In this document: piece by piece, positions 3,465-28,225 of the stretch
Layout of the letters: the number at the start of each line of letters is the position of its first letter
How positions within the stretch are numbered: the stretch's first letter is position 1
NCBI GenBank assembly: GCA_046597055.1
Contig: JBKJLC010000018.1
Location: 1 to 28,993, forward strand
Source of the DNA: Kofleriaceae bacterium
GTDB lineage: Bacteria; Myxococcota_A; Polyangia; Haliangiales; Haliangiaceae
Direction of reading: 5' to 3'
DNA: 28,993 bases
Translations under genes and position numbers: made by a program
The notes under the pieces: model-generated
The model's input: the letters and a program-made list of their open reading frames with translations, nothing else
Database searches by the model: none
Told to the model about the DNA's origin: nothing

Positions 3465-4421
3465 TCAGCGCGTGCGAGCCGGCCCGGGGCCGGCGTGCGG
3501 CGCTGGCAAGGCCTCGGTGAGCGTGCCCTGCATCCAGGTGCCATCGGCGGCGCCGACGAACACGGCGCCGCCGCGGGTCGCGACCAGGAGCCGGCCGGCG
3601 CGATCGACCGCGAGCGCGACCGCGACGTCGGCCGCGCCGAGCGGCGGCGGCGGTGCGACCGTCCACGTGCCCTTGCGCAGGCGGACCAGCGCGACGCCGG
3701 CCGTGGTCCGGCCGAGCACCCACGCGGTGCCGTCAGCGCCGATCGTCACCTGGCTGGCGGCGACCGCGACGCCGGCGGCGCTGGGGCGATGGACGCGGCG
3801 GGTGGTGAGGTCGAGCACCCCGCCATCGCTGGTGACCGCCCACGGCGTGGCGCCGCTGCCGAACGCGACGATCGGCGTGGTCGCATGGGCGACGAAGCCG
3901 CCGCCGACGAGGCGCACGACGCCCAGCTCGCTGCCCGCGAAGACCCTGGTCTCGCTGGCGGCCCACAGCGCCTTGAACGGCCGCCCGGCGGTCGCGATCC
4001 GCTTCCACGCGGTGCCGGTGTGGACGAACACCTGTCGGCCGATCGCGACCGCGGCGCGCGGGCCGTTCGCGATCAGCGTCCGACCGCGCTCGCCGAGGCG
4101 CATCGACAGCCAGCGGTCACCGTCGCGGCGGTAGAACGGCGTCGCGCGCCCGGCGACGACGAGCATCCCGGCCGCGCGGGTCGCGCCCATGACGTCAGCC
4201 GCCACGCCGCCTTCGGTGCGGCGCACCCAGCTGCCGGCGCCATCGGGCTCCCACAGCTGGCCAGAAGGGCCGATCAGCGTCGACTGGCGAACGTCGTCGG
4301 GGGCTGCCGCCGGCGGCACGATCGCCGCGAGCGAGGGCGCCGCGAGAGCGGAGGCGGCGGAGGACCCGAGCGCGAGCGCGGCCAGGAGGAGGGCAGCGAG
4401 GTGCGCGCGGGCGGAGGTCAC
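3465..4421 (-). CDS. Secreted hypothetical protein, possibly beta-propeller-like
   Basis: Signal peptide ([22 protein letters not shown]) and repeated DG.W/GTW beta-rich segments. Its GTG overlaps the upstream stop (GTGA). Confidence 0.65.
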
Positions 4422-4900
4422 GGCGTGATGGTGCCCGGCGCCGCAGCGGTCCCGGCGCTAGTCCCGGGTGCCGTCCCCGCGGCCGGTGCGGTCCCCGCGG
4501 CCGGTGCGGTTCCCGCGGCCGGATCCGTCCCTGGCGCCGTCCCGGCCGCGGGCGGAGGCGGCGGGGTGGCCGTCCCCGGCGCCGGCACCACCGGCGTCGT
4601 CCCCGGCACGGGCGCGTTCAGCTGCATCAGCTCATTGATATCGGTGTCCTTCAGCAGCCCGCACCGGCGCAGCTGGTCGACGGTCGACGACTCCATCGCG
4701 CACTGCACGCTCGACTTCTTCGCGCTGCCGCGGCACGAGCGCACCCACGCCGCGCTCACGCCGCTGTCGTTGCTCATGCGGTCGGTGCCGAGCAGGTTGC
4801 GGATGTTGCTGATCGCCTTCTTGCAGTCGCCCTCCGAGGGCTTGTTGCAGGCCGCGAGGCCGAGCACGAGACTGCACGCGAGCAAAAAACGCTGATTCAT
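4418..4900 (-). CDS. Small Cys-containing lipoprotein with Pro/Ala/Gly/Thr-rich tail
   Basis: AGGAG RBS and ATG 4900 overlapping the upstream stop (ATGA). Lipobox LAAC, four further Cys and a C-terminal PAAGTA repeat. Confidence 0.8.
   Translation of the reverse strand: MNQRFLLACSLVLGLAACNKPSEGDCKKAISNIRNLLGTDRMSNDSGVSAAWVRSCRGSAKKSSVQCAMESSTVDQLRRCGLLKDTDINELMQLNAPVPGTTPVVPAPGTATPPPPPAAGTAPGTDPAAGTAPAAGTAPAAGTAPGTSAGTAAAPGTITP
4471..4523 (-). repeat. 18-bp tandem repeat (about 3 copies) encoding PAAGTA
   Basis: Plus strand c(c/g)gt(c/t)cccgcggccgg repeated three times at 18-bp spacing. Confidence 0.8.
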
Positions 4901-5703
4901 GACCACTCCTCGGGGCAAGTCTCTACCAACTGGATGGCGCGGTCGAGATCCTGGCCGGTGTCGATCTCGCGCCACTGGCCGTGGATCGTCACCGGCGTGA
5001 TCGGGTGACCGCTGTCGATGATCTCCTGCAGGAGATCGGTCAGGTAGGCGTTGCGGAACCGCGCGGCGCGCTGGTACGGCTGGTCGTCGCGGCCCGCGTA
5101 GCGCGCGAGCGCCGCGTCCATCGTGGACGCGAGCAGCGCCATCCCGGCGGCGTCGACCTTCATCAGGCCGATGAACTCGCCATGGGCGTCGGCAGGCGGC
5201 AGCGACTTCTTGCCGACCCGGCGCACCTGGCCGCGGCCGTCGAGGTCCGACACCTCGCCCTCCTCGAGAGGGTGCAGCGTGCGGCCGACGTAGATGTCGC
5301 GGAAGTCGGCGTCGATCACCAGATCGATCGAGCCGGGCGCCGCGACCAGCGCGCGCGTGACCGGCGGCGTGAAGATGATGTCGCTGTAGGTCACTAGCGC
5401 GGGCCCCTCGAGCTCGGCGCGCGCGTAGGCGAGCGACAGCAGGATGTTGTTGGTCTCCCACTCGGGGTTGTCGATGAACGACAGCCGCATGCCGGCCGGC
5501 GCCTCGGCGCACGCGCCGGCCTCGAGCACGTCGCCGCGGTAGCCGCGGATGATCACCAGCTCGTCGACGCCGACCGCGGCGAACGCGCGCATCTGCCAGC
5601 CGAGCATGGTGTGGGCGCCGACCTGGACGAGCGTCTTGGGCAGCTCGTCGGTGTGCTCGCCCAGCCGCTTGCCGCGGCCGGCCGCGATGACGATCGCCTT
5701 CAT
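4897..5703 (-). CDS. Nucleotidyltransferase, phosphocholine/phosphonate cytidylyltransferase (LicC-like) family
   Basis: MKAIVIAAGRGKRL..PKTL, NPEW..NNILLSL, YSDIIF, GEFIGL and WREIDT..DL. ATG 5703 overlaps the upstream stop. Confidence 0.88.
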   Translation of the reverse strand: MKAIVIAAGRGKRLGEHTDELPKTLVQVGAHTMLGWQMRAFAAVGVDELVIIRGYRGDVLEAGACAEAPAGMRLSFIDNPEWETNNILLSLAYARAELEGPALVTYSDIIFTPPVTRALVAAPGSIDLVIDADFRDIYVGRTLHPLEEGEVSDLDGRGQVRRVGKKSLPPADAHGEFIGLMKVDAAGMALLASTMDAALARYAGRDDQPYQRAARFRNAYLTDLLQEIIDSGHPITPVTIHGQWREIDTGQDLDRAIQLVETCPEEWS

Positions 5704-6461
5704 GACGCCTCCGACGAGGACGGGGCGGGCGGCCGCGGGGTCGAGCGCCCGAGCCGGACGAGGATCTTGAGCATCGACATGCCGAGGTAGAGCACGTTCA
5801 CCGCGCCGTAGGCCCAGAAGTAGAGGTCGATCCGGTTGGCCACCGCGCAGATCCAGATGTACTGCGGGTAGTGCACGACCACCCGGGCCGACCACTCGAG
5901 CCCGCTGATGACCATGCCGATCGGGCCGCGGCGGCCGCCAACCTCGGCCGGCTGACCGTCCTCGGTCGGGGGCTTGGCGCCGTACTCGGGCCGGCGCATG
6001 AACGAGGTGAGCGAGATCCCCGACGCCAGCGCGAACAGGCCGGCCAACCCGATCACCAGCAGGTGCTCGTCGTCGGTCTGCTGCCACAGGCGCACCGCGA
6101 CGCATCCATAGATGAGCATCGCCTTCAGCTCGTCCATCAGGAAGTCGAGCAGGTGGCCGAGTGGCGACGCGATCTTGCGGACGCGTGCCAGCATGCCGTC
6201 GACGCAGTCGAGGACGAACGACAGCTCGTACACCGCCGCCGCCACCACCAGGCCGACCCAGCCGGGCCAGGCCACCAGCAGCGCGCCGGCGATCGCCGCC
6301 ACCACGGTCGACAGGAACGTGACCTGGTTGGGCGTGATCGGCGTGTTGCGGAGCAGCCACACGAACACCGCCGCCGGCGGCCGGGCGACGTGCTGGGTGA
6401 ACCAGTTGATGTCCTTCCGCTTCCGCGAGGACCGGTAGATGGCGACGATCTCGGACAACAT
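5700..6461 (-). CDS. CDP-alcohol phosphatidyltransferase family protein
   Basis: ITPNQVT and the signature DCVDGMLAR-x6-LG-x3-D-x3-D (DCVDGMLARVRKIASPLGHLLDFLMD); multiple TM helices. Confidence 0.93.
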   Translation of the reverse strand: MLSEIVAIYRSSRKRKDINWFTQHVARPPAAVFVWLLRNTPITPNQVTFLSTVVAAIAGALLVAWPGWVGLVVAAAVYELSFVLDCVDGMLARVRKIASPLGHLLDFLMDELKAMLIYGCVAVRLWQQTDDEHLLVIGLAGLFALASGISLTSFMRRPEYGAKPPTEDGQPAEVGGRRGPIGMVISGLEWSARVVVHYPQYIWICAVANRIDLYFWAYGAVNVLYLGMSMLKILVRLGRSTPRPPAPSSSEAS

Positions 6462-6583: not shown

Positions 6584-7393
6584 ATGTTCATCGACGCGGC
6601 GAGCGCCGCCCGGATCGACGCGGGTGAGGCGCGGCTGTCGTCGGCGATCGCCGGCACGCTCCAGGCGCGCGGGGTGGCGGTCGAGGTGACGCCGGTGGTC
6701 GGCGGCGTGTCGGTGCTGGCCCAGGCCGGCTCGCAGATCAACAAGGTCATTGGCGCCGGCTTCGGGTTCGTCCCCGACGACGCGGCGCTGGCAGCGGTCG
6801 AGGCCGCGTGGTGGGCTCGCGGCGAGCCGGTCCGCTTCGAGGTCGCGACCCTGGCCGACCCGGCGTTCTCCGCCTACCTCACCGCGCGCGGTTACCAGCT
6901 GCGCGGCTTCGAGCACGTCCTCACCCGCCGGCTGACCGACGCTGTGCTGCCGCCCGGCGACGTGACCGTGGACCGGGTCGGGCCCGACCACGGTGCGCGC
7001 TGGCTCGAGGTCTCGCTGGCCGGCTGGGGCCCGGCCGACGGCACGCCGCACGAGCAGGGCGGGCTGCGCGAGGTCTTCACCGACTTTCTCCGCACCGACG
7101 CGATCGCGCACTACCTCGGGTCCATCGACGGGGTCGCGGCCGGCTCCGCCAGCGCGCGCTACGACCCCGACGGCATCGCCTACCTGGTCGGTGCCTCGAC
7201 CGCGCCCGGCTACCGCCGGCGCGGCGTCCAGCGCGCGATCCTGAATGCCCGCCTGGCGGCCGCGCGGGAGGCCGGCTGCGAGCTGGCGGTGGTCACCACC
7301 GACCCCGGATCGCAGTCGCAGGCCAACGTGATCCGCGCCGGGTTCGAGGTCGGCTACGCCCGCGCCGTGCTGGTGCGGCCGCCGCCGGCCTGA
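6584..7393 (+). CDS. GNAT family N-acetyltransferase
   Basis: C-terminal acetyl-CoA motif A (GASTAPGYRRRGVQRAIL) and SQSQANVIRAGF. The N-terminal half also looks GNAT-like (YLTARGY). Confidence 0.88.
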   Translation: MFIDAASAARIDAGEARLSSAIAGTLQARGVAVEVTPVVGGVSVLAQAGSQINKVIGAGFGFVPDDAALAAVEAAWWARGEPVRFEVATLADPAFSAYLTARGYQLRGFEHVLTRRLTDAVLPPGDVTVDRVGPDHGARWLEVSLAGWGPADGTPHEQGGLREVFTDFLRTDAIAHYLGSIDGVAAGSASARYDPDGIAYLVGASTAPGYRRRGVQRAILNARLAAAREAGCELAVVTTDPGSQSQANVIRAGFEVGYARAVLVRPPPA

Positions 7394-7430
7394 TCGGCGA
7401 CGCCGGGGCGCGGCCTCGCGCACCACGGGA

Positions 7431-9227
7431 TCAGCAGCCGGTCGGCTTGACCTCGGCCTTGGCACCGCCGTCGATCTTGACCGCTTCGAGCGTGATCTTG
7501 GACTTGCATTCGCCGGCCACGCCGGCCTTGACCCGCTTGAACGTGACGTTCTTGAGGCTGGCGCTCACGTCCCGGGTGACTGCCACCGCGGCCTCGTCGG
7601 CGGTGTCCTGGATCACGGCGTGCTCGAGCAGGTTGTCCTCGGCGCGGTTCGACAGCTGGACGCCGCCCCACGCGCCGGCCTCGTCGCGCACGCCGCGCAG
7701 CACGATCGGCTTGTCCTTGGTCCCGGTCGCGCGCAGCGACGCCTTGTTGTGATAGCCGATCCGCAGGAAGGTCCCGGCGCCGTCGAAGCGGAGCTCGAGC
7801 CCGGCCGCGAGCAGGAGCTTGGCGTTGTTGACGTCGACGGTGCCCTTGAGCTGGATCGCGGCGGCCGGCTGCGGTGACCAGGTCTGATCGCTCTCGAGGG
7901 TGCCGCCCTCGACCATGATCGGCTGGTCGGCCGCGTAGGTGTTGGCCGCGCCCAGCTTGCCGACCTGGTCGGGAAACATCGTGATCGCGGTCGTGTTGGC
8001 CTCGAACCGATTGCCGTCGATCGCCTTGATCTTGCCGCGAACCTGGCTGGCGATGCCGACGGTGTTGCTCTTGATGCTGCTGTTCTTGACCGTGAGCACG
8101 CCGCCGTCGACGACGAACACCGCGCCGAGGTCGGTGTTCTCGCCGCCGTACTGGACGGTCGCGTGGCTGAGCGTCAGCTCGCCCTTGCCATGGGCGCCCA
8201 CGCCTTGCCACTTGCCGGGCTCGGCGCCGTCGGCGGCCGTGAACAGCACCGGCTTCTCGGCGGTGCCCTGGACGTCGATCGATCCGGGGGTGTGGTAGCC
8301 GGCGTGCAGGTCGACGCCGGGCCGGAAGCGCAGCTCCGTGCCGGCCTGGATGACCAGCTTGGCGTGGCCGTGCTCGCCGTCGACCCGGACCTGCCGCTCG
8401 ACGACGTAGTGGCTGCCCGGGTTGCGCCAGGTCGCGTCCTCGCTGACGGTGCCGCCGCGGATCTGCACGAAGCCGCCCTCGGAGAACGTGTTGCCCTCGC
8501 CCAGGGCGCCCACCGCGATCGCCGGCAGCGAGGCCGCAATGGTGCCGGCCTGGTCGAAGTGCAGCCCGGCGCCCTGCTTGACCGTCATGTCGTCGGCGAC
8601 CCACAGCCCTACCTCGGCCGCGTTCTTGATCGTGACGTCCTGGAGGCTGACGTCGACCGCCTCGATGCGGAGCGCGCCCTCGTCGCTGCCGGCGTTCTCG
8701 ATCACCAGGCCGGTGAGCGTGGACCGCGCGGCAAACGAGGCCAGGCGCACGCCGGCCCACGAGCCGGGGACCTGGTCGCCACCGGCGATCAGCCGGACCG
8801 GGTCGGCGGCGGTGCCGTTGACCTTGAGCTTGCTGGGGGTGCGGTAGCCGACCACCAGCCGGGCGCCGGGCTGGAACGCCAGCACCGCGCCGGCCTCGAG
8901 CGTGAGCGAGCCTTCGACGCTGTAGTCGCCTTTGACCGGGACCGGCCCGCACTCCTTCTTGATGGTGCGATCCAAACCGGTGTCGGTGCCCTCGAGCGAC
9001 TTGGGGCACTCGGTGATCGGCTTGAGCCCGGACAGCTCGCCGCCGGTGGCGGTCGAGCCCGGGCTGTCGCCCGGGTTGCCGGCGACCCCGCCGACGCCCG
9101 GGTTCTCGGCACCGGTGACCACGGCCGCGTCGGCGCCGGCCTGGTGGGTCGCCGGCTTCTTCTTGCAACCGCCAGCCGCGACCAGGCCACCAGCGACGAA
9201 CACCACCCCGAATGCACGCAGGTTCAT
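7431..9227 (-). CDS. Lipoprotein with three repeated modules, probably right-handed parallel beta-helix (pectin-lyase-like fold)
   Basis: Lipobox-like AGGC followed by KKK. Three copies of L..AG..L.F...L..GY.....L...GT...P...G.W.GV, plus N/T-rich beta-helix segments. Confidence 0.75.
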   Translation of the reverse strand: MNLRAFGVVFVAGGLVAAGGCKKKPATHQAGADAAVVTGAENPGVGGVAGNPGDSPGSTATGGELSGLKPITECPKSLEGTDTGLDRTIKKECGPVPVKGDYSVEGSLTLEAGAVLAFQPGARLVVGYRTPSKLKVNGTAADPVRLIAGGDQVPGSWAGVRLASFAARSTLTGLVIENAGSDEGALRIEAVDVSLQDVTIKNAAEVGLWVADDMTVKQGAGLHFDQAGTIAASLPAIAVGALGEGNTFSEGGFVQIRGGTVSEDATWRNPGSHYVVERQVRVDGEHGHAKLVIQAGTELRFRPGVDLHAGYHTPGSIDVQGTAEKPVLFTAADGAEPGKWQGVGAHGKGELTLSHATVQYGGENTDLGAVFVVDGGVLTVKNSSIKSNTVGIASQVRGKIKAIDGNRFEANTTAITMFPDQVGKLGAANTYAADQPIMVEGGTLESDQTWSPQPAAAIQLKGTVDVNNAKLLLAAGLELRFDGAGTFLRIGYHNKASLRATGTKDKPIVLRGVRDEAGAWGGVQLSNRAEDNLLEHAVIQDTADEAAVAVTRDVSASLKNVTFKRVKAGVAGECKSKITLEAVKIDGGAKAEVKPTGC

Positions 9228-9507
9228 CGCAACGTCTTACGTGGACGGCCGGGTGCGATCAAGGGCACGGTGCGGCACGCGGCGGCGGTGGTCTGAGCGG
9301 TGGAGCGCCGTCGGGGGGGCACGATCGAGCGGTCGTGCCGGGCCCGCGATCGAGCCGTGGCTGACCTCACCGCGCGCTTCCAGCGCCTGCCGTCGCCCGC
9401 CGATGTAAGCCGTGGATCGCCCGATCTGGCTTGCGCGGGAGTCAGCGCTATGGCTACCGTCCGCGCCGTTCACGTCCGTAACAATTCAGATGACCTGGGG
9501 GTTCAGG

Positions 9508-12500
9508 ATGCCCGAGCACACGATCCCCGAGTCCCTCGTCGAAGCGATCAAGTCTGGTCGTGCGGCCCTCGTGGTCGGCGCGGGAATCGGTGTCCCTTCC
9601 TGGAAGCAGCTTCTCGAGCGCATGACGAAGGAGCTGGAGGCGCGCGGTCGCGATGGCGACGACGCGGCCGCCAAGGATCTCGCCAAGCTCCTTCATAAAG
9701 GCAGCCTGGTCCGGGCGGTGGGCTTCCTCGCCCGCGCGCTGGGCGAGGAGGCCTGCGACAAGCTGGTCGAGGAGACCTGGCGCACGCCGCCGGAGCTGCC
9801 CGCGATCGCGAAGACGCTGGCCGAATTGCCGTTCCGCCACGTGTGGACCACGTTCCCCGGCGACGTCCTCGAGCGGGCGATGTCCGAGCACCGGCCCGAA
9901 GGCTGGCCCGAGTCCAAGGTCGTCACCTACCGCGAGCTCGGGGGGCTGTCGGCCCGGCGCCGGACCCTGGTCAAGATGCTCGGCAACTTCGACACGTACA
10001 TCGTCACGCCCAGCTCGGTCCGGCGTGCGCTGGCCCGCGCGGTCGACCTGCGCGACTACGCGCGCGAGCTGTACGTCGAGGGCACCCTGGTGTTCGTCGG
10101 CTTCCGCTTCGGCGATCCCGACCTGTCGGCGCTGCTCGATCGCGTGTTCGGCATGTTCGAGCCGCCGCGCAGCTCGCACTACTTCCTGAGCGCCGGGGTC
10201 GGTCCGGTCACGATCGACGAGCTGATGGCCGAGCACCACATCGAGGTGGTCAACCTGGCCGGCAAGGGCGGCGACGACCTCGCCGACAAGAGCGTGGTCG
10301 ACTGGCTCGACGCGCTGAGCCTCGCCTGCAAGCAGGCCTCGGTCACGCTGATCCAGACCCGGCCCGACGCCGACGATCTCGACGGCTGGTTGGCGCGCCT
10401 GCTCGATCACGATCTCGAGGCGCGCGACGCGGTCGACGCGATCGAGCTGGCCGCCCGCGACGCCAACGATGGCGAGCGGGTGGTCGAGGTGCTGCTCGGG
10501 CGGCTCGACCTTGAGTCGAACGGCAGCGACAAGGCCAGTCTCCTGCGCGAGGCGGCCAAGGTCTACGAGGAGATGGTCGGCGACCTGCGCCGCGCGTTCG
10601 AGGCGATCACCGCCGCGATGCACCTCGACCCGGCCGCGGACGCCGTGGTGACCGATGCCGAGCGGCTGGCCGCCGCCACCGGCGCCTGGGCCGACCTGGT
10701 CGGTGAGGCCACCGAGATCACGACCGAGGTCACCGAGCCGTCGCTGGCCTCGCGCTGGTGGGGCCGGCTCGGCGGCTGGTACGCGGTGCGCCTCGACCGC
10801 TACGACTACGCGTTGCCGTCGTTCCGGCGCGCGCTCGAGCTCGACGGCAAGAACCTCGACGCCCACCGCGGCCTGGCCGACCTGCTGCGCCGCCAGCAGA
10901 AGTGGTCGGAGCTGGCCGATACCCTGCGCGCCCAGGTCGAGATCGAGACCGACGCGACCCACAAGGTCGACCTGTTCCTGCAGCTCGGGGATCTGTGCGA
11001 GACCCAGCTGGCGCAGACCGCGCGCGCCGCCTCGGCCTACGAGGCCGCGGCCGACGTCGGCGACGGCAACGACGACGCCCTGGCCGCGCTCGAGCGGCTG
11101 TACCGCCGCGACGAGCGCTGGGCCAACCTGGCCAAGGTGCTCGAGCGCCGCGCCGAGGTGCTCGACACCGCCGGCGAGGTCGGGCGCGCCACCGCGGTCC
11201 GCAGCGAGCTGGCCCGGCTCCGCCACGAGAAGCTCGGCGACCTCGAGGGCGCGATCGCCCGCTACGAGGCGGCGATCGAGAAGGACGGCGCCGATCGCGA
11301 GGCGCTCAAGGCCCTGGTCGATCTCTACGACAAGACCGGGCGCTCGGACGACTACCTGCGCACCCTCGAGCGGCTGGCCAAGGTCGCGCCCGAGGCCGAG
11401 AAGCTGTCGACCCTGCGCAAGGTGGCGGCCGAGCTCGAGGATCACCCCGCGCTGGTCGAGCGCACGATCGCGGCCTACCAGAGCATCATCGAGGTCGATC
11501 CCGGCGCCGACGATGCCTACCGCGGCCTCGGCCGCGCGCTGCGCGCCAAGAGCGCCTGGTACGACCTGGTCGCGCTGCTCGATCGCCACGTGGGGGCGGC
11601 CAAGAACCCGGTCCAGCGGGTGGAGCTGTACCTCGAGGCGGCCGCGGTCCACGAGAAGGAGCTCGACGATCCTCACCGCGCGATCGAGGGCCACCTCAAC
11701 GCGCTGGCGATCGATGACACCGCCCGTCCGGCGCTGGCGGCGCTGGCCCGGCTGTATCGCCGCACCGAGGCCTGGGACAAGGCGGTGTCGACCCTGGTCC
11801 GGCACGCCGAGCTCGAGGGCAACCGCGGCGCGCACCTGTGGGCCGAGGCCGGTGAGCTGGCGCTGACCGAGGACGGCGACGCCGAGAGCGCCGAGCGCTA
11901 CCTCGACAAGGCGCTGGCGCTCGACCCCGAGCACCTGAAGGCGTTGACCACCCTGGCCGCGCTGCACGAGAAGAAGTCGGCGTGGTCGAGCGCGGTCGAC
12001 GACCTGCTCCGCGCCGAGGCGATCGCGCCCAACCGCGGCGAGCGCATCGAGCTGCTCGGCCGGGCCGCCGACATCGTCGAGATCCGGCTCGAGGACACCC
12101 CGCGCGCGATCGGCCTGCTCGAGCGCGTGCTCAAGCTCGACCCCGATCACGTGGTCGCCGGCGAGAAGGTGGCCGACCGCCTGGTCGCCGCCGAGCGCTG
12201 GGACGACGCGGTCCCGGTGCTCGAGATCCTGGCCCGCCGCGCCGAGAACGATCGGCTCGAGCGGGCCCGGCGCGAGGCCCAGCTCGGCCACGCCTACGAG
12301 GCGCTGCACCGCACCGAGAAGGCCGCCCGCCACTACCGGCTCGCGGTCGACGCCGATCCCGACAACCTGGAGGCGGCGCTCGGCCTGGCCGGCACGCTGC
12401 TCACCGCGGCCCAGGCCGCCGAGGGCGCCAACCCGGGCGGCGCCGGTGGCGAGGAGTCGTGGAAGGAGATCGACAAGCGCTACCGCGAGGTGCTGGCCCG

Positions 12501-14400
12501 CCACCGCACCGGCCTGGCCGACGGTCAGGTCGCCGACATCTGGTACCGGCTGGGCATCACCGCCCGCGCGCTCGGCGACGACAAGAAGGCCGAGAACGCG
12601 CTGCGGCGCGCGCTCGAGCGCGAGCCGGCGCACGGCGAGTCGCTGCAGGCGATGGTCGAGCTCGGCGGCGCGCGCGGCGACTGGAAGACCGTGGTCGAGG
12701 CCAAGCGGGCCCAGGTCGACGGCGCGCCCGAGAATCTGCAGGTCAAGCTGCTCGACGAGATCGGCGACATCCAGCGCGGCAAGCTCAAGGACCCGGGCAA
12801 CGCGGTCGGCGCCTACCTCGAGGCGCTGTCGCTGGCGCCCGGCAGCCACCAGCTGCTGCACAAGCTGCTCGAGTGCTACACCGAGCAGAAGCAGTGGCGA
12901 CGCGCGGTCGACACGCTCGAGGAGCTGGCGGTCCAGGAGACCTCGGCCGGCCGGCGCGCGAAGTACCACTACGCCGCGGCCGTGATCGCGCGCGACGAGC
13001 TGGCCGACACCGCGCTGGCGGTCGAGCGGTTCGCCAGCGCGCTCGAGGATGCCCCGGCCACGCCCAAGGCCTACGAGGCGATCGAGAAGCTGCTGACCGA
13101 CACCCGCGACTGGAAGGGCCTGGCCCGCGCGGTGCGCAAGCACCTCAAGCGGCTGGGCGACGACGCCCCCAACGAGCAGGTGCTCGAGCTGTGGACCCGG
13201 CTCGGCGATCTCTACGTCGATCACCTCGGCAGCCCCGAGCTGGCGATCGAGGCGTTCGAGATCGCGGCCCAGCTCGATCCCGACAACCAGCAGCGCCACG
13301 AGCAGCTCGCCGACCTCTACCTCGAGGCCGGCGAGGCGCGCCGCGGCGACGCGATCCGCGAGCTGCAGCAGCTGCTGGCGTTCGCGCCGGAGCGGGTCGA
13401 GATCTACAAGACCCTGTCGCGGCTGTACGGCGAGGACGGCGAGCTCGACAAGGCGTGGTGCCTGGCCCAGGCCCTGGTCTTCCTCGGCGCCGCCTCCGAC
13501 GACGAGAAGGCGATGTACCTCAAGCTGCGGCCGGCCCAGTTCATCCCGGCGACCCGCCGGCTGACCGAGGAGCTTTGGCAGAAGGCCGTGATCCACCCCC
13601 GCGAGGACCGGCACGTCGGCGCGATCTTCGCGACCACGCTCGGCGCGATCGCGGCGACCACCGCGGAGGCGCCGCAGGCGTTCGGCCTCGACGCGGCCGG
13701 GCGCACCGACCTCGACAAGGACTCGCGGCTCATCACCCGGGTCGTCAAGTACGCGTCCGGCGTGCTCGCGCTGGATCCGGCGCCGATGCTCTGGCTCGAC
13801 CAGGGCGACGGCCTGCGGGTGGCGAACACCACCGACCGCGGCAAGCTGGCGCCGTCGCTGCTGGTCGGCGAGGCCCACCAGGGCAAGCAGGACGAGCGCG
13901 AGCTGGCGTTCGAGGTCGGCAAGCGGCTGGCCTACCTGCGGCCCGAGCGGTTCGTGACCTTCGCGCTGCAGACGCTGCCGAAGATCGAGACCGCGTTCAC
14001 CGCCGCGCTGATGGCGTCGGGCGCGTCGCTCGAGGGCGTGGCCACCGCGATCACGGGCAGCGACGAGGCCCGCAAGCTCTCGGCGAGCATGAAGCAGACC
14101 CTGCCCGGCGCCCACCTCGAGCAGGTCGCGGCGCTGGCCGGCAAGCTCGGGCCGCGGCTGGGCAACGGCCTGGTCACCAGCTGGCGGAGCGCGACCGACC
14201 TCACCGCCAACCGGGTCGGGTTGATCCTCGCCAACGACCTGCAGTCGGCGGCCAAGGCGATCGCGACCGAGACCTCGAGCACCTCGGGGCTGCCGGTCAA
14301 GGAGCGCCTGCGCGACCTGCTCGCGTACGCGGTGTCGGAGCCGTACTTCCAGGTCCGGCGCCACCTCGGGCTGACCGTGCGGGCCGAGGCGTCGGCGTGA
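9508..14400 (+). CDS. Giant protein (about 1630 aa): degenerate SIR2-like N-terminal domain, long TPR solenoid and AgmK/GltI-like C-terminal domain
   Basis: N-terminal LVVGAG..P.W, WTTF, LVKMLG, LVFVGF..DPD and HYFL (SIR2_2 layout). Many TPR motifs (e.g. ALAALERLYRRDERWANLAKVL). C-terminal DKAWC..L.FL..HPRED..ELAF.VG..LAYLRPE..TANRVGL..VSEPYFQVRRHLGL. Start placed at ATG 9508 (alternative 9490). Confidence 0.85.
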   Translation: MPEHTIPESLVEAIKSGRAALVVGAGIGVPSWKQLLERMTKELEARGRDGDDAAAKDLAKLLHKGSLVRAVGFLARALGEEACDKLVEETWRTPPELPAIAKTLAELPFRHVWTTFPGDVLERAMSEHRPEGWPESKVVTYRELGGLSARRRTLVKMLGNFDTYIVTPSSVRRALARAVDLRDYARELYVEGTLVFVGFRFGDPDLSALLDRVFGMFEPPRSSHYFLSAGVGPVTIDELMAEHHIEVVNLAGKGGDDLADKSVVDWLDALSLACKQASVTLIQTRPDADDLDGWLARLLDHDLEARDAVDAIELAARDANDGERVVEVLLGRLDLESNGSDKASLLREAAKVYEEMVGDLRRAFEAITAAMHLDPAADAVVTDAERLAAATGAWADLVGEATEITTEVTEPSLASRWWGRLGGWYAVRLDRYDYALPSFRRALELDGKNLDAHRGLADLLRRQQKWSELADTLRAQVEIETDATHKVDLFLQLGDLCETQLAQTARAASAYEAAADVGDGNDDALAALERLYRRDERWANLAKVLERRAEVLDTAGEVGRATAVRSELARLRHEKLGDLEGAIARYEAAIEKDGADREALKALVDLYDKTGRSDDYLRTLERLAKVAPEAEKLSTLRKVAAELEDHPALVERTIAAYQSIIEVDPGADDAYRGLGRALRAKSAWYDLVALLDRHVGAAKNPVQRVELYLEAAAVHEKELDDPHRAIEGHLNALAIDDTARPALAALARLYRRTEAWDKAVSTLVRHAELEGNRGAHLWAEAGELALTEDGDAESAERYLDKALALDPEHLKALTTLAALHEKKSAWSSAVDDLLRAEAIAPNRGERIELLGRAADIVEIRLEDTPRAIGLLERVLKLDPDHVVAGEKVADRLVAAERWDDAVPVLEILARRAENDRLERARREAQLGHAYEALHRTEKAARHYRLAVDADPDNLEAALGLAGTLLTAAQAAEGANPGGAGGEESWKEIDKRYREVLARHRTGLADGQVADIWYRLGITARALGDDKKAENALRRALEREPAHGESLQAMVELGGARGDWKTVVEAKRAQVDGAPENLQVKLLDEIGDIQRGKLKDPGNAVGAYLEALSLAPGSHQLLHKLLECYTEQKQWRRAVDTLEELAVQETSAGRRAKYHYAAAVIARDELADTALAVERFASALEDAPATPKAYEAIEKLLTDTRDWKGLARAVRKHLKRLGDDAPNEQVLELWTRLGDLYVDHLGSPELAIEAFEIAAQLDPDNQQRHEQLADLYLEAGEARRGDAIRELQQLLAFAPERVEIYKTLSRLYGEDGELDKAWCLAQALVFLGAASDDEKAMYLKLRPAQFIPATRRLTEELWQKAVIHPREDRHVGAIFATTLGAIAATTAEAPQAFGLDAAGRTDLDKDSRLITRVVKYASGVLALDPAPMLWLDQGDGLRVANTTDRGKLAPSLLVGEAHQGKQDERELAFEVGKRLAYLRPERFVTFALQTLPKIETAFTAALMASGASLEGVATAITGSDEARKLSASMKQTLPGAHLEQVAALAGKLGPRLGNGLVTSWRSATDLTANRVGLILANDLQSAAKAIATETSSTSGLPVKERLRDLLAYAVSEPYFQVRRHLGLTVRAEASA

Positions 14401-15281
14401 GGCGCCCGGTCGGCGCGACCGTGATGCTCGCGATCGGCGCGATCGCGACCTCGTGGTCGTGTGGTGGCGACGGTCCGGTGTGTGGCGACGGCGACGTCGG
14501 TGGCACCGAGCAGTGCGACGACGGCAACGACGACGAACTCGACGAGTGTCGGGCCTGCGTGTCGTTCACGCCGCCGCGGACCATCGTCAAGTGGGCGTTC
14601 AACGCCGAGGCGGTGCCCGGCTTCACGACCGACGGCTGCGTCGACGTCAACGCGACCCAGGTGCGGGTCGAGCTGGCCGGGCCGATGGTCGCCAGCAAGG
14701 AGGGCCCCTGCTCGTCGCGCCAGGTCACGTTCGACGGCCTGCCGGCGGGGACCTATACCGCCCAGGTCACGCCGCTCGACAGCGCCGGCGCGTCGCTGGT
14801 GACCGCTGCCGCCACCGGCACCTTCGCGACCACGGCGATGTCCAACACGACCGAGGAGCACACCGTGGTGGTGCCGCCGGCGGCGTGGGCGCGCCCGATG
14901 ACTGGCACGTACTTCTTCATGCTGCGGTGGGGCGGCATGCCGTGCACGGCCGCGGTGGCCACGCAGACGGTGACGATGCGGGTGCTCGGGGTGGTCTCGA
15001 CGCGCAGCACGACCAGCACGCCGATGTACCGGCTCGACGGCAGCCAGCCCGTGCCGTGCGTGATGTCGGTCCCGGGCGACACCGAGCACGCGACGCTGAT
15101 GCGGTTCGGGCCCGCGCAGGTCGAGGTGGTCGGCAAGGATAGCGGCGGTGCCGAGATGTTCCGCGGCACCTTCGACACCTTCGTCGGGGCCGGCATGTCG
15201 AACCCGGTGCTCACGCTCGACGTGCCGTCGACGATCGACGCCGGCGTCGATGCCCCGCCCGACGCGACCATCGGCCTCTGA
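14397..15281 (+). CDS. Lipoprotein with a Myxococcus cysteine-rich repeat (DUF4215-like) and beta-rich domains
   Basis: GTG overlaps the upstream TGA. Signal peptide ends in SWSC, followed by CGDGDVGGTEQCDDGN..C and a C-terminal IDAGVDAPPDA. The real CDS is only the 3' part of track ORF 11982..15281. Confidence 0.8.
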   Translation: MRRPVGATVMLAIGAIATSWSCGGDGPVCGDGDVGGTEQCDDGNDDELDECRACVSFTPPRTIVKWAFNAEAVPGFTTDGCVDVNATQVRVELAGPMVASKEGPCSSRQVTFDGLPAGTYTAQVTPLDSAGASLVTAAATGTFATTAMSNTTEEHTVVVPPAAWARPMTGTYFFMLRWGGMPCTAAVATQTVTMRVLGVVSTRSTTSTPMYRLDGSQPVPCVMSVPGDTEHATLMRFGPAQVEVVGKDSGGAEMFRGTFDTFVGAGMSNPVLTLDVPSTIDAGVDAPPDATIGL

Positions 15282-15322: not shown

Positions 15323-15370
15323 GTGGGTGCCGGCGGTACATCCGCGGGCGGATTCGGTATCTTGGACCTC

Positions 15371-17203
15371 TTGAGGGCACCGTTCCCGCTCTGTAGGGTC
15401 GCTGTGGTCGTGTGGACGGCCGCGGTCGCCACGCTCCTGACCGGGTGTGGGCGTCCGGCGAAGTCGCGCGACGGCACCACGGTCACCGCCTCGGGCGCGG
15501 TCCCGTTCCCGGTCGACTTCGTGCCGTCACCCGCGCTGCCGCCGCCGGCCGGTGCCGACGCCAAGGCGTTCGGGGCCAGCTACCTCGAGATGGTCTATCC
15601 GCGCATCCGCGACGGCTGGCACCAGTTCCTCGAGGACTGCCGGCTGCGGCTGCCGCCGGCGCACCCGCTCAACAGTCCGACCCTGGCCGCGACCGTCGGG
15701 ATCACGGTCGACCGCCAGGGCCAGATCGTCGACGTCGCGATGCTGACCGGCAGTGGCGACCGCGAGTTCGACGACGCCGCGATGGGCGTGGCGACCGACG
15801 CCGGCCCGTTCCCGGCCCCGGCGCGTCCGCTGTTGTCCGACGACGATCAGGTCTACCTGACCTGGCTGTTCGCGCGCGATCAGCGGCAGGCCGGCCCGGC
15901 CACCGCCAGCCTGCGGCGGGTCGAGTGGTCCCTCGATCAGGCGGTGCCCAAGTTCATTGCGACCGGCGATCTCGACGAGGCGGCCCGGCGGCTGGCGGCG
16001 GCGTCGCCCACGGTCGAGGGCGCCGCGCGTGACTCGCTGCTCGGCCTGGCCGAGCGCGTGGCGACCGCGACCGTGCGCGAGGGCCTGGCCAGCCCCGAGC
16101 AGCCGGTCCAGCGGCTCGCCATCGAGATTGCCGCCGCGGCGCGGCTCACCCCGGCCGCGCGCGAGCTGCGTTCGATCGCCGATGGCTCGCTCGCGATCGG
16201 CCTGCGCGCGGCGGCGATCGACGCGCTCGCCGTGATCGGCGATCGCGAGGCGATTGGCCTGATCCGCGGCATCCTCGCGCGCGATCAGGGCGCCAACGCC
16301 GAGCTCACCGGCGCCGCGGCGCGCGCGCTGGGCCGGCTGGGCGCGACCGCCGAGCTGAACACGCTGGTCGCCGGCTGGCTCGCCGAGGGCCGGGCGGGCA
16401 CGACCGCGGCCCATCGAGCGAAGAGCTGGGCAGCGCTGGTCGCCGCGGCCCACGCCCCGGCGACCGCCGCGGTCCCGGACGCCAACCGGTTGGTCGGCAC
16501 CGGTGATCCGGCCCTGCGCGGCGCGGCGTGCCGGGCGCTCGGTCACGCGACCGCCGCCGATGCCAGCGCCTGGAAAGGCCTGCGGGCCGGGCTCGCGGAC
16601 GCCGACGCGTCGGTGCGGGCGGCGTGCGCCGGTGCGATCGCCGATGCCGCCACTGCTGGCCAGCGCAACCGCGCCAGCTTCTGGGCGATCGGCCCGCTGG
16701 TGCGCGACCGCGACGAGCGGGTGCGCGCCGCCGTGGTGCGGGCGATGGCGCGGCTCGAGCCGGCGCGCGCGAAGACCGAGCTGGCCGCGGTCGGGCGCGA
16801 CAAGAGCCCGGCCGTGCTCGCCAGCCTGGCCGAGGCCTGGGTCGTGATCGGGCTGCCCGACAAGACGGTCGCGCTGCTCGGCCACGAGGCTCCCGCGGTG
16901 CGGCTGGCGGCCGCCACCGCGCTCGCGGCCGGCGATGCCGCCGCTCAGCAGAAGCTCGCGACCCGGGCCAACCTCGACCCGGTGCTGCGGGTCCGCGCGA
17001 TCAGCGTCACCACCGACCGCGGCGCGCTCGAGGCGGGCTCGACCGACCCCGACGCCGACGTGCGGGCCGCGGCCGCGACCCGGCTGATCGTGGTGCGCGG
17101 CCGCTCCGAGACGCTCGGCGCCGTGATGACCGCGATCGCCGCGGCGCCCCCGGCCAGCGCCGAGCGGGTGCGCCTGGCCGGCGCCTGGCTGGCCGCGCGC
17201 TGA
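15371..17203 (+). CDS. Lipoprotein with TonB C-terminal domain and HEAT repeats
   Basis: Lipobox LTGC. TonB-C motif ITVDRQGQIVDV.MLTGSGDREFDDAAM....AGPFPAP. HEAT repeats (D.DASVRAA, DRDERVRAA, DPDADVRAAA). Start uncertain (TTG 15371; alternatives GTG 15404 and 15410). Confidence 0.8.
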   Translation: MRAPFPLCRVAVVVWTAAVATLLTGCGRPAKSRDGTTVTASGAVPFPVDFVPSPALPPPAGADAKAFGASYLEMVYPRIRDGWHQFLEDCRLRLPPAHPLNSPTLAATVGITVDRQGQIVDVAMLTGSGDREFDDAAMGVATDAGPFPAPARPLLSDDDQVYLTWLFARDQRQAGPATASLRRVEWSLDQAVPKFIATGDLDEAARRLAAASPTVEGAARDSLLGLAERVATATVREGLASPEQPVQRLAIEIAAAARLTPAARELRSIADGSLAIGLRAAAIDALAVIGDREAIGLIRGILARDQGANAELTGAAARALGRLGATAELNTLVAGWLAEGRAGTTAAHRAKSWAALVAAAHAPATAAVPDANRLVGTGDPALRGAACRALGHATAADASAWKGLRAGLADADASVRAACAGAIADAATAGQRNRASFWAIGPLVRDRDERVRAAVVRAMARLEPARAKTELAAVGRDKSPAVLASLAEAWVVIGLPDKTVALLGHEAPAVRLAAATALAAGDAAAQQKLATRANLDPVLRVRAISVTTDRGALEAGSTDPDADVRAAAATRLIVVRGRSETLGAVMTAIAAAPPASAERVRLAGAWLAAR

Positions 17204-17313: not shown

Positions 17314-17649
17314 ATGCTATCCATCCTGCTGATGCGCCGACTCGCTGCTCTCCTTGGCCTCACGACCGTCCTCGCGCTGGCCGCGGTGGCCACCACCGGC
17401 CTGTCCGGGTGCAAGCAGCGCGAGGGCGACTACTGCCAGGTCACCGACGACTGCAGCGACGGCCTGCGCTGCGTCGCCGCGACCAACACGTGTCAGCGGG
17501 ACGTGGTGGACGGGGTCGACGCCGCGGTCGTCCTCCCAGTCGACGCGCGGGACGCCGCGCCGGACGGCCCGCTCGACGCCGCGCCGGACGCCGCGCTCGA
17601 CGCGGCCATCGACGCGGTCGCCGAGATCGACGCCGCCGTTCCGCGCTGA
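17314..17649 (+). CDS. Small Cys-rich lipoprotein with DA-repeat tail
   Basis: Lipobox LSGC, then CKQREGDYCQVTDDCSDGLRC..NTC and DAAPDGPLDAAPDAALDAAIDA. The start may be ATG 17332. Confidence 0.75.
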   Translation: MLSILLMRRLAALLGLTTVLALAAVATTGLSGCKQREGDYCQVTDDCSDGLRCVAATNTCQRDVVDGVDAAVVLPVDARDAAPDGPLDAAPDAALDAAIDAVAEIDAAVPR

Positions 17650-17700: not shown

Positions 17701-18696
17701 CTACAGGCTGGCGCCGCCGTAGATGCAGCGGAAGCCGATGAAGGCCTCGCGCGAGCCGGGGTCGAGCGGTCGCAGCACCGCCATCGCGCTCTGGTAGCTC
17801 GGCACGTCGACCCGCGCCGCGAACGGCGGGTCCCGCCAGCTCCCGCCCCGGGTCATGCCCAGCCCCATCGGCGACCCGAGCCGGACCGGGTTCTCGGCCG
17901 GGAGCTGGTCGAAGCCGAGGTCGGTCCAGTCGTCGAGGACCCACTCGGCGACGTTGCCAGCCTGATCGTGGGTGCCGTAGGGACCGTTGCTCCAGCGCAG
18001 CGAGCCGGGCGGGGCTGCGAACGGCCAGCCGTCGCTCGGATCGGGATCGCCCTGGCCGATGTTGGTCCCCTGCGGCCGCGCGATCTCCGACAGCTGACGC
18101 AGCACCGGCTCGCGGGGCCGCCCGTGGTTGAAGTCGTCGGGCCGCGGCAGGTCGCCCCACGGCCAGGTCCGGAGGTCGGGGCCCCGCGCCGCCTTTTCCC
18201 ACTCGGCCTCGGTCGGGAGCCGCCCGCCGCGCCAGGCGCAGAACGCGCGCGCCTCGGGGCGGGTCACGTTGACCACCGGCAGGTCGTCGTGGAGGTGGCG
18301 GACGTCCCCGCTCACCAGCGGGTCGAGCGCGCAGCCGCCGGCCCAGACGCAGGCGCGGTACTCGGCGGTGGTCACCTCGTCGATGTCGATCGAGAAGGCC
18401 TCGATCCAGACGTCGCGGTGCAGGCGGCGCTCGAGCACGGCCGCCCACAGCATGCACGGGCTGAACGCCGGGCCGGGCGCGCGCACGACCTGCTCGCACT
18501 CGTCGAGCAGCGTGGGCACGTCGTCGGGCGGCACGCCCATCGTGAACCGGCCGGCCTCGACCCGGACCCGGGTCGGATCACGGTGGATGACCCGGACCAC
18601 GCTGCCGGGGCGCGCGGCCCACGCCCCGCTCGCGAGCGTGGCCGCGACCAGGACGGTCAGGCTGGCGAGGGCCACCGTGGGGACTGCCGCGCGCAC
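17701..18696 (-). CDS. FGE/sulfatase-modifying-factor fold protein (SUMF1/EgtB/PvdO family), exported
   Basis: G.FTMG, EVT.AEY, PVVNV, RLPTEAEWEKAARG, WPWG, GNVAEWV, RGGSW and GFRC; N-terminal signal peptide. Confidence 0.92.
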   Translation of the reverse strand: MRAAVPTVALASLTVLVAATLASGAWAARPGSVVRVIHRDPTRVRVEAGRFTMGVPPDDVPTLLDECEQVVRAPGPAFSPCMLWAAVLERRLHRDVWIEAFSIDIDEVTTAEYRACVWAGGCALDPLVSGDVRHLHDDLPVVNVTRPEARAFCAWRGGRLPTEAEWEKAARGPDLRTWPWGDLPRPDDFNHGRPREPVLRQLSEIARPQGTNIGQGDPDPSDGWPFAAPPGSLRWSNGPYGTHDQAGNVAEWVLDDWTDLGFDQLPAENPVRLGSPMGLGMTRGGSWRDPPFAARVDVPSYQSAMAVLRPLDPGSREAFIGFRCIYGGASL

Positions 18697-18729
18697 GCCG
18701 AACAGTGTGCCCCGAGGCTGCCGCCGCCG

Positions 18730-19239
18730 CTACTCGGCGAGGTCGCCGTCGGGCGCGCTGACCTCGACCCATTCGACCGAGACGATCTCGTACTCGCGCT
18801 TGCCCTTGGGGGTCACCACCACGACCTCCTCGCCCACGCGCTTGCCCAGCAGCTGGCGCGCGACCGGCGCCACCAGCGAGATCCGCCGCTTCTTGATGTC
18901 GGCCTCGTGCTCACCGACGATCGTGTAGGTCTGGCGCTCGCTGCTCTCGGTGTCCTGGATGGTCACGGTCGCGCCGAACTGGATCCGGTCGCCCGACAGC
19001 CGGGTCGGGTCGATGATCTCGGCGAGCGCGAGCCGCGAGTCGTAGTCGCGGACGCGCGCCTCGATCATGCCCTGCTCCTCCTTGGCGGCGGAGTAGTCGG
19101 CGTTCTCGGACAGGTCGCCGTGGCCGCGGGCGATCTCGATCGCCTTGGCGTTGGCCGGCCGGTCGACCTCCTTGAGCTTCTTCAGCTGGCGCTTCATCCA
19201 GAGGTGGCCGGCCGGGGTCATCGGGAACTTGTCGCTCAT
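18730..19239 (-). CDS. greA: Transcription elongation factor GreA
   Basis: PMTP.G, AR.HGDLSENADY.AAKEEQ, FGATV, Y.IVGE.EAD and IS..APVAR.LLGK. GGAG RBS before ATG 19239. Confidence 0.95.
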   Translation of the reverse strand: MSDKFPMTPAGHLWMKRQLKKLKEVDRPANAKAIEIARGHGDLSENADYSAAKEEQGMIEARVRDYDSRLALAEIIDPTRLSGDRIQFGATVTIQDTESSERQTYTIVGEHEADIKKRRISLVAPVARQLLGKRVGEEVVVVTPKGKREYEIVSVEWVEVSAPDGDLAE

Positions 19240-19292
19240 GATCTCATCTCCGGCGATGCGCTCGCGGGCGCCTGGCGGGCGCCCGTCCTCAT

Positions 19293-22571
<3,279 letters not shown>

Positions 22572-22572
22572 C

Positions 22573-23724: not shown

Positions 23725-23807
23725 ATATTCGCCCTGCTTCGGGTTGCAAGAAAGCGCCGAAGCGGTATCGAAACCGGTTCGGAGCTGGAGGGGTCAGGCG
23801 AGCGGGA

Positions 23808-23836
23808 ATTGTACGCGTCGCCGTCCCAAAACGAAA
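23808..23836 (-). promoter_or_regulatory. Sigma70-type promoter of carAB
   Basis: Minus strand TTTCGT-N17-TACAAT, about 80 nt upstream of the carA start. Confidence 0.55.
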
Positions 23837-23906
23837 CGCCCGGCGTTCTCCGAAGCCGTGAAGCGGGCCCCGCATGAGTTGCAGCCGCCCCAATCACCTG
23901 GCGCGG

Positions 23907-24617: not shown

Positions 24618-24623
24618 GCCGGC

Positions 24624-24652
24624 AGGCTAGCGGGCGAGGCCCGCGCGGACAA
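24624..24652 (-). promoter_or_regulatory. Sigma70-type promoter of dapB (probably leaderless)
   Basis: Minus strand TTGTCC-N17-TAGCCT, then 6 nt to ATG 24617. No SD sequence. Confidence 0.6.
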
Positions 24653-24668
24653 GCGGCACGCCGCGGCG

Positions 24669-26915: not shown

Positions 26916-27021
26916 GGGGGAGGCTCGGAACAGGAATGAATGCACCGTACAGGCTACGCCTCGTTCCGTCACTTATTGGTGCCATGGGTCATGTTTTGAC
27001 ACATTTCGGTCGAGCCAGTCC

Positions 27022-28152: not shown

Positions 28153-28177
28153 CGGTCCCGCCTGCTTCCGTCATGAA

Positions 28178-28205
28178 GACGGGCAGACCTTGCGGCCTGC
28201 CCGTC
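28178..28205 (-). other. Stable stem-loop with GCAA tetraloop between dnaK and dnaJ (partial terminator or mRNA stabiliser)
   Basis: Minus strand GACGGGCAGGCC-GCAA-GGTCTGCCCGTC (12-bp stem with one G-U pair), followed only by TTC. Confidence 0.6.
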
Positions 28206-28225
28206 GTGGTTTGCCTGTCGCGTGA

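Follow-up and report, generated by a model that had tools for sequence, protein, structure and literature searches.

A conserved SIR2-type domain without sirtuin catalytic residues heads a predicted GltI-type scaffold protein in Polyangia

The window analysed here is a stretch of 28,993 nucleotides from a Kofleriaceae bacterium of the class Polyangia (assembly GCA_046597055.1, contig JBKJLC010000018.1). Its subject is a giant gene (9508–14400, plus strand), which runs as a single open frame from an ATG at 9508 to a stop at 14400 and encodes a 1630-amino-acid (aa) protein composed of a pseudo-SIR2 domain, a tetratricopeptide-repeat (TPR) solenoid and a GltI-type C-terminal domain. Judging from its sequence, the N-terminal domain resembles those of defence NADases of the ThsA/DSR2 kind and has lost their catalytic residues, a loss that recurs throughout its fused relatives. 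The parts are known; the architecture is real, conserved and apparently undescribed, and its function is predicted. The reading that we favour, with modest confidence, is that of a domesticated pseudo-sirtuin that would dimerise a cytoplasmic TPR scaffold head-to-head, giving a two-ended assembly.

The pseudo-SIR2 domain (aa 1–276; 9508–10335, plus strand) had been identified as SIR2_2 in an initial annotation made from the letters of the window alone, and both Pfam and an AlphaFold model with structure search agree with that identity. Pfam SIR2_2 matches residues 111–232 at 40.5 bits (E 3.7e-10; cut-off 24.5 bits). ThsA is the best match of the domain among PDB sequences (phmmer, E 6e-7 to 8e-7), followed by KomC and DSR2; a 29-row family profile matches ThsA at E 1.4e-25, and the PADLOC ThsA model, applied to the giant gene alone, matches the domain at E 9.5e-15. 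The model of aa 1–430 (pLDDT 91) has SeThsA (7uxt) as its best structural match, with Z 22.9 and an rmsd of 2.7 Å over 249 aligned residues, and EcThsA, BcThsA, KomC and DSR2 also match at Z 20–22. By sequence match and predicted structure, the domain is a SIR2 fold of the defence-type ThsA/DSR2 kind. The annotation had further described an intact frame continuing into more than 1000 aa of TPRs; this is what we find, with Pfam TPR families covering the rest of the protein. The N-terminal start is shared by relatives, the highest 19-residue hydropathy of the protein is 1.33, indicating no clear membrane helix, and the protein is predicted to be cytoplasmic. A frameshift or assembly artefact behind the fusion was considered and ruled out by 119 homologues of 899–1678 aa, by the genomes of relatives and by matching contigs. 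A contig of run X2 spans 9000–10166 with all four motifs, and contigs of runs X1 and X3 span 9000–9996, in each case with zero differing letters; the three runs come from one study, and X1 is possibly the source of the window itself.

The four sirtuin motifs lie in this one frame exactly where the initial annotation had placed them, all on the plus strand. The equivalent of GAGxS is GAGIG (9577–9591, G24–G28), and in alignment to SeThsA the segment 9577–9603 has lost the Ser, is shortened by about four residues in its loop and retains P30 and W32. TTNYD is represented by TTFPGD (9847–9864, T114–D119), with N replaced by F116, Y by P117 and D by G118 in a gap-free alignment to ThsA. The KxHG motif aligns to KMLG (9973–9984, K156–G159), with H replaced by L158, and G[YF]SxxD, by alignment and column counts, to GFRFGD (10099–10116, G198–D203), with S replaced by R200 and with G198 and D203 retained. 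The annotated replacement of TTNYD by TTFPGD thus stands as to the Asn; since the alignment is gap-free, TTNYD corresponds to TTFPG, the equivalent of the Asp is lost as well (G118) and D119 is the next position. Likewise, the statement that every diagnostic position is altered holds for the catalytic residues and the serines and fails for G24, G26, P30, W32, T114, T115, K156, G159, G198 and D203, which match the consensus of intact relatives.

According to the available text of PMC11263360, the catalytic dyad of ThsA consists of N112 and H152, and the substitutions Y134A, D135A and H171A reduce the activity of DSR2. Avs5 is functional with NG replacing HG, yet requires N110 and D112 (PMC12931631, in the portion available). 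Because Avs5 tolerates NG, loss of the His alone would be non-decisive; the joint loss of Asn, Asp and His, whose aligned positions hold F116, G118 and L158, is strong evidence against sirtuin chemistry, in line with the catalytic loss first annotated. Of the features that mark defence SIR2 NADases, the window domain has the SIR2_2 fold and none of GAGxS, TTNxD and HG (or Avs5-type NG). On the favoured reading the domain would neither cleave NAD+ nor need to bind it.

To place these losses in the family, 203 distinct domains were pooled from the fetched loci and the 150 best library representatives, after matches covering too little of the profile had been dropped. Members carrying the family linker or C-terminal domain were called fused (120, including the window protein and some near-copies). 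None of the 120 fused members keeps both N-x-D and H/N-G, as against 67 of the 83 other SIR2 matches; 110 keep neither motif, and one has N-F-D without the His. The His was called in nine fused members, one of them a false call, leaving eight of the type TT/ST/NT-G-Y-D with AHG. The 83 non-fused domains comprise the 67 intact ones, nine family fragments and seven members of a separate SIR2-STAND group. The same picture came from a further 54 fused members, not one of which combines the two motifs: HG persists in four, and TTNAD occurs in one that is without the His loop. The Asn is retained in single fused members only (P0205, L117 and P0330). The initial annotation had named as a refuting outcome that homologues mostly keep TTNYD and HG, and these counts run the other way.

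Column counts were compared among the 67 intact relatives, 28 members of the Haliangiales clade and 92 other fused members, given here in that order. The Ser of GAGxS is present in 97%, 0% and 14%, the catalytic Asn in 100%, 0% and 2%, and the catalytic His in 100%, 0% and 9%. The residues typical of intact relatives at the H101 (79%, 0%, 7%), Y171 (90%, 0%, 4%), S200 (75%, 4%, 8%) and Y250 (87%, 0%, 4%) positions have largely gone too, while G24, G198 and D203 stand at 98–100% throughout and structural G, W and D residues are retained in fused members. On these counts the loss is selective for functional positions and family-wide, with replacing letters that vary by clade; most of the HG loop is deleted in the Nannocystaceae-type clade. 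The annotated N-to-F and H-to-L changes are fixed only in the Haliangiales-type clade, and class-wide it is the loss that is constant and the replacing residue that varies. A FastTree phylogeny of 194 rows (the nine fragments excluded) placed the Nannocystaceae-type clade among intact domains, and an IQ-TREE phylogeny of 46 of those rows placed the fused members on one side of a branch with support 41. These sequence trees neither show nor reject a single origin of the fusion, and for that reason only the counts suggest that the Asn was lost before the His.

The domain was found in 16/16 same-genus genomes, 22/24 same-family genomes and 9/9 genomes from other families of the order, mostly as a single copy. 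Residue conservation was measured in the best 119 of 246 homologues, a set ranked on the domain itself and hence biased towards likeness. In this set T114, T115, P117, G118, K156, G159, G198, F199, R200, D203, P204 and D205 are invariant; 118 members have F and one has Y at position 116, and 112 have L and seven have F at position 158. The ratio of nonsynonymous to synonymous substitution rates (dN/dS) is 0.16–0.30 for the domain in nine same-genus comparisons, and 0.53 and 0.62 for the TPR part in the two same-genus comparisons with full-length genes. At order and class distance the domain is the less conserved part, with 30–37% identity as against 38–44% for the TPRs. Presence throughout the genus and the low domain ratios favour purifying selection over decay, the alternative that the annotation had set against it, and decay of a single copy was ruled out by homologue conservation and dN/dS. 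The family profile gave a SIR2 match of any kind in 144/251 class genomes, with high shares in some families (f1 35/39, f12 29/42, f13 14/15, f14 38/42, f29 10/10) and low shares in others (f5 1/20, f10 1/18, f16 1/11, f21 0/18); some genomes hold 2–3 paralogues. In a phylum sample, 42/251 matched at E <= 1e-8, and among open reading frames (ORFs) longer than 1400 aa, to which the look outside the class was restricted, the sole match was an intact SIR2 without TPRs; three of 1103–1320 aa lie below that length.

The remainder of the protein points to GltI. The TPR solenoid (about aa 298–1330; 10399–13497, plus strand), identified by Pfam TPR families and blastp, corresponds in collinear order to the last third of a GltI-like protein encoded elsewhere in the genome: residues 308–1624 align in one piece with residues 2642–3967 of a 3968-aa ORF on contig C177 (blastp, 32% over 1357 columns). 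The C-terminal domain (13498–14397, plus strand; model pLDDT 93) is shared with the same ORF (hidden Markov model (HMM) search, E 1e-76). The GltI-like gene (C177:58766–70669; L070, L071) carries no SIR2 domain and adjoins gltG-like, gltE-like and TPR lipoprotein genes, the gltE-like and gltG-like ones matching NCBIfam models at E 1.7e-29 and 2.7e-97, both below cut-off; M. xanthus GltI likewise follows gltE and gltG (PMC3169522, available text). PMC11761067, in whose main text, as far as available, the word 'Sir2' is absent, presents GltI as a TPR scaffold of the cytoplasm whose large C-terminal domain is helical and for which GltG-FHA sites are predicted; GltI is about 3800–4100 aa long (available text of PMC3169522 and PMC11761067). 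By its collinearity with the C177 ORF, the window protein is a GltI paralogue that has been shortened and has gained a new head. We call it a paralogue, and not GltI, because it is collinear with a real GltI-like protein that sits in a glt-like cluster elsewhere; identity with GltI was rejected on the same separation of the 3968-aa protein and its cluster from the window gene. The kinship with GltI/AgmK first annotated is upheld in this form. Further giant TPR ORFs of 2216–4034 aa lie on contigs C269, C9 and C155, and a partial 835-aa ORF (C248:1–2505; L072) has a GltI-type C-terminal domain (E 3e-31) and no NCBIfam match.

The C-terminal domain shows a weak likeness to M48 zinc peptidases. 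Its model gave zero Foldseek matches at E <= 0.001, and beyond the TPRs nothing was assigned to it by Pfam, NCBIfam, PDB-sequence or Foldseek search; likeness to the M48 peptidase 3c37 is middling (Z 7.5, rmsd 5.1, 179 residues aligned), with ZMPSTE24 and BlaR1 at Z 6.4–6.5. At the putative M48 motif position, which was picked by eye, none of 32 rows has HExxH, and KRLAY-type letters stand there instead. Members of three families, f14 among them, carry a kinase-like insert between the SIR2 domain and the TPRs. In the seven members of about 2000–2150 aa that were inspected (L051, L052, L066, L092, P0203, P0220 and P0302) this Ser/Thr-kinase-like insert has altered HRD and DFG motifs, because of which it is probably dead too, a probable pseudokinase by its sequence.

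The motility or predation role that the initial annotation had proposed is not borne out: the gene is not part of the glt-like cluster, the genome has a separate GltI-like protein of 3968 aa, and families that hardly yielded the domain carry a GltG/GltJ-type C-terminal domain all the same. The latter (NF033768) was found in 251/251 class genomes, including families in which the pseudo-SIR2 protein was hardly found. Co-occurrence with gliding genes is uninformative given this universal presence, and the pseudo-SIR2 protein would be at most accessory to gliding, since families hardly holding it have the GltG/GltJ-type domain.

Two copies of the domain were predicted to form a homodimer, scoring 0.68 where the best of three controls scored 0.00; the mark used is reached by 20/30 solved pairs and 1/23 single chains. 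The runs agree in at least 96% of contacts, with pLDDT of at least 85. In the dimer model, aa 50–77 (9655–9738, plus strand; R69, G72, F73 and R76) meets aa 232–242 (10201–10233, plus strand; G232, P233, V234, D237 and E238) across a two-fold, both surface parts being supported by conservation. Interface identity is 93%, as against 79% for the whole domain, in the best 119 of 246 homologues, and interface conservation is enriched in the 28-member clade (p = 0.05). R76 lies opposite D/E237; the two fused groups have R76 in 89% and 63% of their members and D/E237 in 82% and 73%. In DSR2, interface 4 (R86, Q89 and I90 with Y260 and Y261) builds a head-to-head tetramer, and the Y260E variant retains NADase activity (PMC11263360, available text). 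From its position in the sequence, the predicted dimer surface appears to match this interface. The dimer prediction lends support to the oligomerisation-module role that the annotation had listed among others.

We propose that in an ancestor, presumably of the Polyangia, a defence-type SIR2 NADase domain was fused to a shortened copy of a GltI-type TPR scaffold. The enzyme would next have been disabled and the domain retained for its fold. The domain would pair with itself head-to-head through helices 50–77 and 232–242, and by this pairing two TPR solenoids would become one two-headed scaffold in the cytoplasm, able perhaps to organise partner proteins, as GltI is thought to do. The scaffold might serve an accessory module of the envelope, together with the lipoproteins encoded next to it and a neighbouring TonB_C-HEAT protein. 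Non-enzymatic use of a SIR2 fold through self-contact has, by analogy, a precedent in kind in SAMD9, where NAD binding by the SIR2-like domain is considered improbable and the domain works via SIR2/SIR2 contacts (PMC12889676, a preprint, available text). We regard as possible rather than probable a broader version, in which the proteins form a class-wide, all-pseudoenzyme scaffold family that combines a disabled anti-phage NADase, a reused oligomerisation surface, a probable dead peptidase and, in some families, a dead kinase, on a two-headed GltI-paralogue scaffold, within an undescribed envelope-spanning module with a Cys-rich lipoprotein and the TonB_C-HEAT protein; this would be a bacterial parallel to SAMD9, with an immune effector turned into a structural part of housekeeping.

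Several observations weigh against the scaffold proposal. Among the 92 fused members that are more distant, the interface shows no excess of conservation (p = 0.61), and the interface identity above is inflated by the ranking of the 119 homologues on this very domain. The mapping to DSR2 interface 4 was derived from residue offsets (query 9–240 against DSR2 32–259) and not from superposition, and since the PDB contains SIR2 oligomers, resemblance to solved structures may account for the dimer pass. As to selection, dS is underestimated at a GC content at third codon positions (GC3) of about 0.96, and the dN/dS ratios come close to 1 at order and class distance. Of 72 family loci with enough flank, 22 have a homologue of the Cys-rich lipoprotein immediately after the gene, seven of these 22 having seeded the profile, and it is missing at the other 50.

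Other uses of the domain were weighed. The annotation had also suggested NAD+/ADP-ribose sensing, a proposal now weakened. Such a non-catalytic sensor, in which the old pocket would bind NAD+, ADP-ribose or another phosphorylated ligand and switch the scaffold, is in our judgement unlikely. The motif serines bind phosphate in sirtuins, and both of them, together with the equivalents of H101, Y171 and Y250, are gone family-wide; the GAGxS loop is shortened, the replacing residues differ among clades and the HG loop of the Nannocystaceae-type clade is largely deleted. It is because these pocket residues, typical of intact relatives, were lost along with the catalytic ones that NAD sensing becomes less likely, in spite of a retained Rossmann core with G24/G26, W32 at the P-x-W position, G198 and D203. 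W32 is probably the equivalent of the nicotinamide-stacking W60 of DSR2, the replacing residues are fixed in the close clade (R200 in 119/119 of the best 119 of 246), and DSR2 H171A is still NAD+-binding (PMC11263360, available text), all of which speak for a sensor. To an active enzyme with a rebuilt site, be it a NADase, an ADP-ribosyltransferase or a deacylase working via other residues, we give very little credence: F, G and L at the three window positions cannot act like Asn, Asp and His, no fused member has both motifs, and no new family-wide invariant polar residue has appeared at these positions. That the HG motif can vary, as in Avs5 (PMC12931631, available portion), and that the His persists in at least 8/120 fused members and the Asn in the three single members named above would be the grounds for it.

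The resemblance of a SIR2 domain followed by helical repeats to DSR2, the use of a non-enzymatic SIR2 in immunity by SAMD9 (PMC12889676, available text) and the presence of 2–3 paralogues in some genomes would fit a protein that is still immune, whose TPR solenoid senses a phage protein as does the helical region of DSR2 and whose dead SIR2 either links to an active partner as an adaptor or lures phage anti-sirtuin proteins as a decoy. We consider this quite unlikely, as the gene is usually single-copy at a fixed housekeeping locus, is strongly conserved and not in fast turnover, and carries repeats derived from GltI and not from DSR2; moreover, the window's own genome (94% complete) holds no second SIR2_2 match, and no TIR/ThsB, SLOG, HerA or Argonaute was found among those window ORFs that were scanned with Pfam/NCBIfam. 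An inert structural cap, conserved for folding, that merely stabilises the first TPR helices and has no partner, is a poor candidate with little likelihood. It would account for retained positions that are mostly structural, and the family-typical R110, R152 and acidic linker could, going by residues and not coordinates, pack within one chain. It sits badly with an entire 276-residue domain that outconserves the TPRs in genus and family comparisons, with surface helices 67–78 and 233–243 that are among the best conserved parts in the close clade, and with persistence of the domain despite a kinase-like insert before the TPRs.

Compared with known systems, the protein shares with ThsA (Thoeris), KomC and DSR2 the fold (Z 20–23), the motif order and the N-terminal position of the domain, and with DSR2 also the long helical-repeat region after SIR2; its predicted self-association would use a surface that appears to match DSR2 interface 4. 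In contrast to all three, it has lost the catalytic N, D and H and the motif serines, has no SLOG domain, carries GltI-derived repeats and is near-universal in genus and order at a housekeeping locus. With GltI/AgmK (MXAN_4863) of the Myxococcus Agl-Glt gliding machinery, a protein recruited to focal adhesions, it has in common a giant cytoplasmic TPR protein with a large C-terminal helical domain, a likeness judged against the genome's own 3968-aa protein and not against MXAN_4863. It differs in its length of 1630 aa versus about 3800–4100, its N-terminal pseudo-SIR2 and its place outside the glt cluster, and several families with the GltG/GltJ-type domain yielded no such protein. Human SAMD9/SAMD9L are TPR-bearing proteins with a prokaryotic-type SIR2 fold used without NAD chemistry through SIR2/SIR2 contacts, as is proposed for the window protein. 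SAMD9 has lost the small lid subdomain and has a STAND NOD and a tRNase, whereas the window protein keeps the helical subdomain and shows no NTPase or nuclease family in a Pfam scan that would correspond to the NOD or the N-terminal tRNase; as a structural match to the domain, SAMD9 (Z 11.8) falls far behind ThsA (Z 22.9). Ordinary SIR2_2-TPR and SIR2_2-CHAT proteins are likewise SIR2_2 domains fused to further domains, but the intact matches examined keep TTNxD and HG and are without the GltI-type linker and C-terminal domain. The nearest intact sirtuins (P0176, P0180, P0184, P0188, P0192 and P0183) are SIR2-CHAT fusions, one being a SIR2-PAS-histidine kinase-receiver protein. The ESM Atlas gave no match at or above 0.9, and its SIR2_2+TPR clusters of 500–800 aa, with scores below 0.9, are leads only.

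No account of a GltI paralogue headed by a conserved dead SIR2 was found in the literature searched, which comprised main texts and few subscription papers, and the homologue tables of PMC3169522 could list such proteins as GltI homologues; the available part of PMC8195603 holds no description of this architecture. This agrees with the annotation, which had not recognised it as described. Bacterial SIR2_2 domains are read and annotated as NAD-depleting defence effectors, and several proteins of this family are named 'SIR2 family protein'. Belonging to a near-core gene, and conserved although disabled as an enzyme, the SIR2 domain here would be a false positive for such annotation. The family offers a case of immune-domain domestication, in which, if true, an immune weapon was turned into a building part. 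It would also be a natural test of SIR2 self-assembly selected apart from catalysis, as proposed for SAMD9, and a handle on the role of uncharacterised myxobacterial GltI paralogues.

Gene order around the giant gene recurs across the order and in some class-level families, and by this synteny the locus is a housekeeping locus. A conserved upstream pair (4897–6461, minus strand; Pfam/NCBIfam), a nucleotidyltransferase and a CDP-alcohol phosphatidyltransferase (5700–6461), lies directly upstream of the gene in relatives. In the window, a GNAT acetyltransferase gene and a beta-helix lipoprotein gene stand between the phosphatidyltransferase and the giant gene (6584–9227); neither was found in the relatives' loci searched, where the two flanking genes usually adjoin, and the pair is likely a recent insertion. 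No sigma-70 site was found upstream of the gene, a scan that is uninformative for this bacterial group. Downstream, the GTG start of the Cys-rich predicted lipoprotein (14397–15281, plus strand) overlaps the giant gene's stop, with an in-frame ATG at 14424; its DUF4215/myxo_disulf_rpt likeness is below cut-off in the window copy and above it in L037 and L032. It is followed by the TonB_C and HEAT-repeat protein (15323–17203, plus strand; Pfam/NCBIfam), a co-directional neighbour conserved in synteny, and by a small Cys-containing predicted lipoprotein (17314–17649, plus strand), also co-directional, with no family match. A housekeeping block of an FGE-sulfatase-domain gene, greA and carB (17701–22571, minus strand; Pfam) is conserved in synteny in order- and class-level relatives.

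Elsewhere, three loci of family f14 (L067:6411–12694, L123:853–6501 and L124:634–6743) hold a two-gene unit in which a SIR2 domain without the Asn and His is joined to nSTAND1-WD40 and a second SIR2 protein with PNLD and HG/NG motifs follows directly, as SIR2-CHAT in L124. From these motifs the units may possibly be dead-plus-live sirtuin pairs in a STAND defence system. Toward the right end of the window, from about 21500 to 28993, the GC content drops from 0.70–0.79 to 0.64–0.68, and 21001–27000 lies at the 99th percentile of tetranucleotide distance. Compared with a relative, carB gives a poorer match over its N-terminal half (0.54–0.92) than does a second carB on contig C185 (0.76–0.94); other copies of carA, dapB, dnaJ and dnaK occur elsewhere in the genome, and 20168–23612 is bridged by no listed contig. 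The right end is probably foreign, with a chimeric join inside carB, and the SIR2-TPR finding is unaffected.

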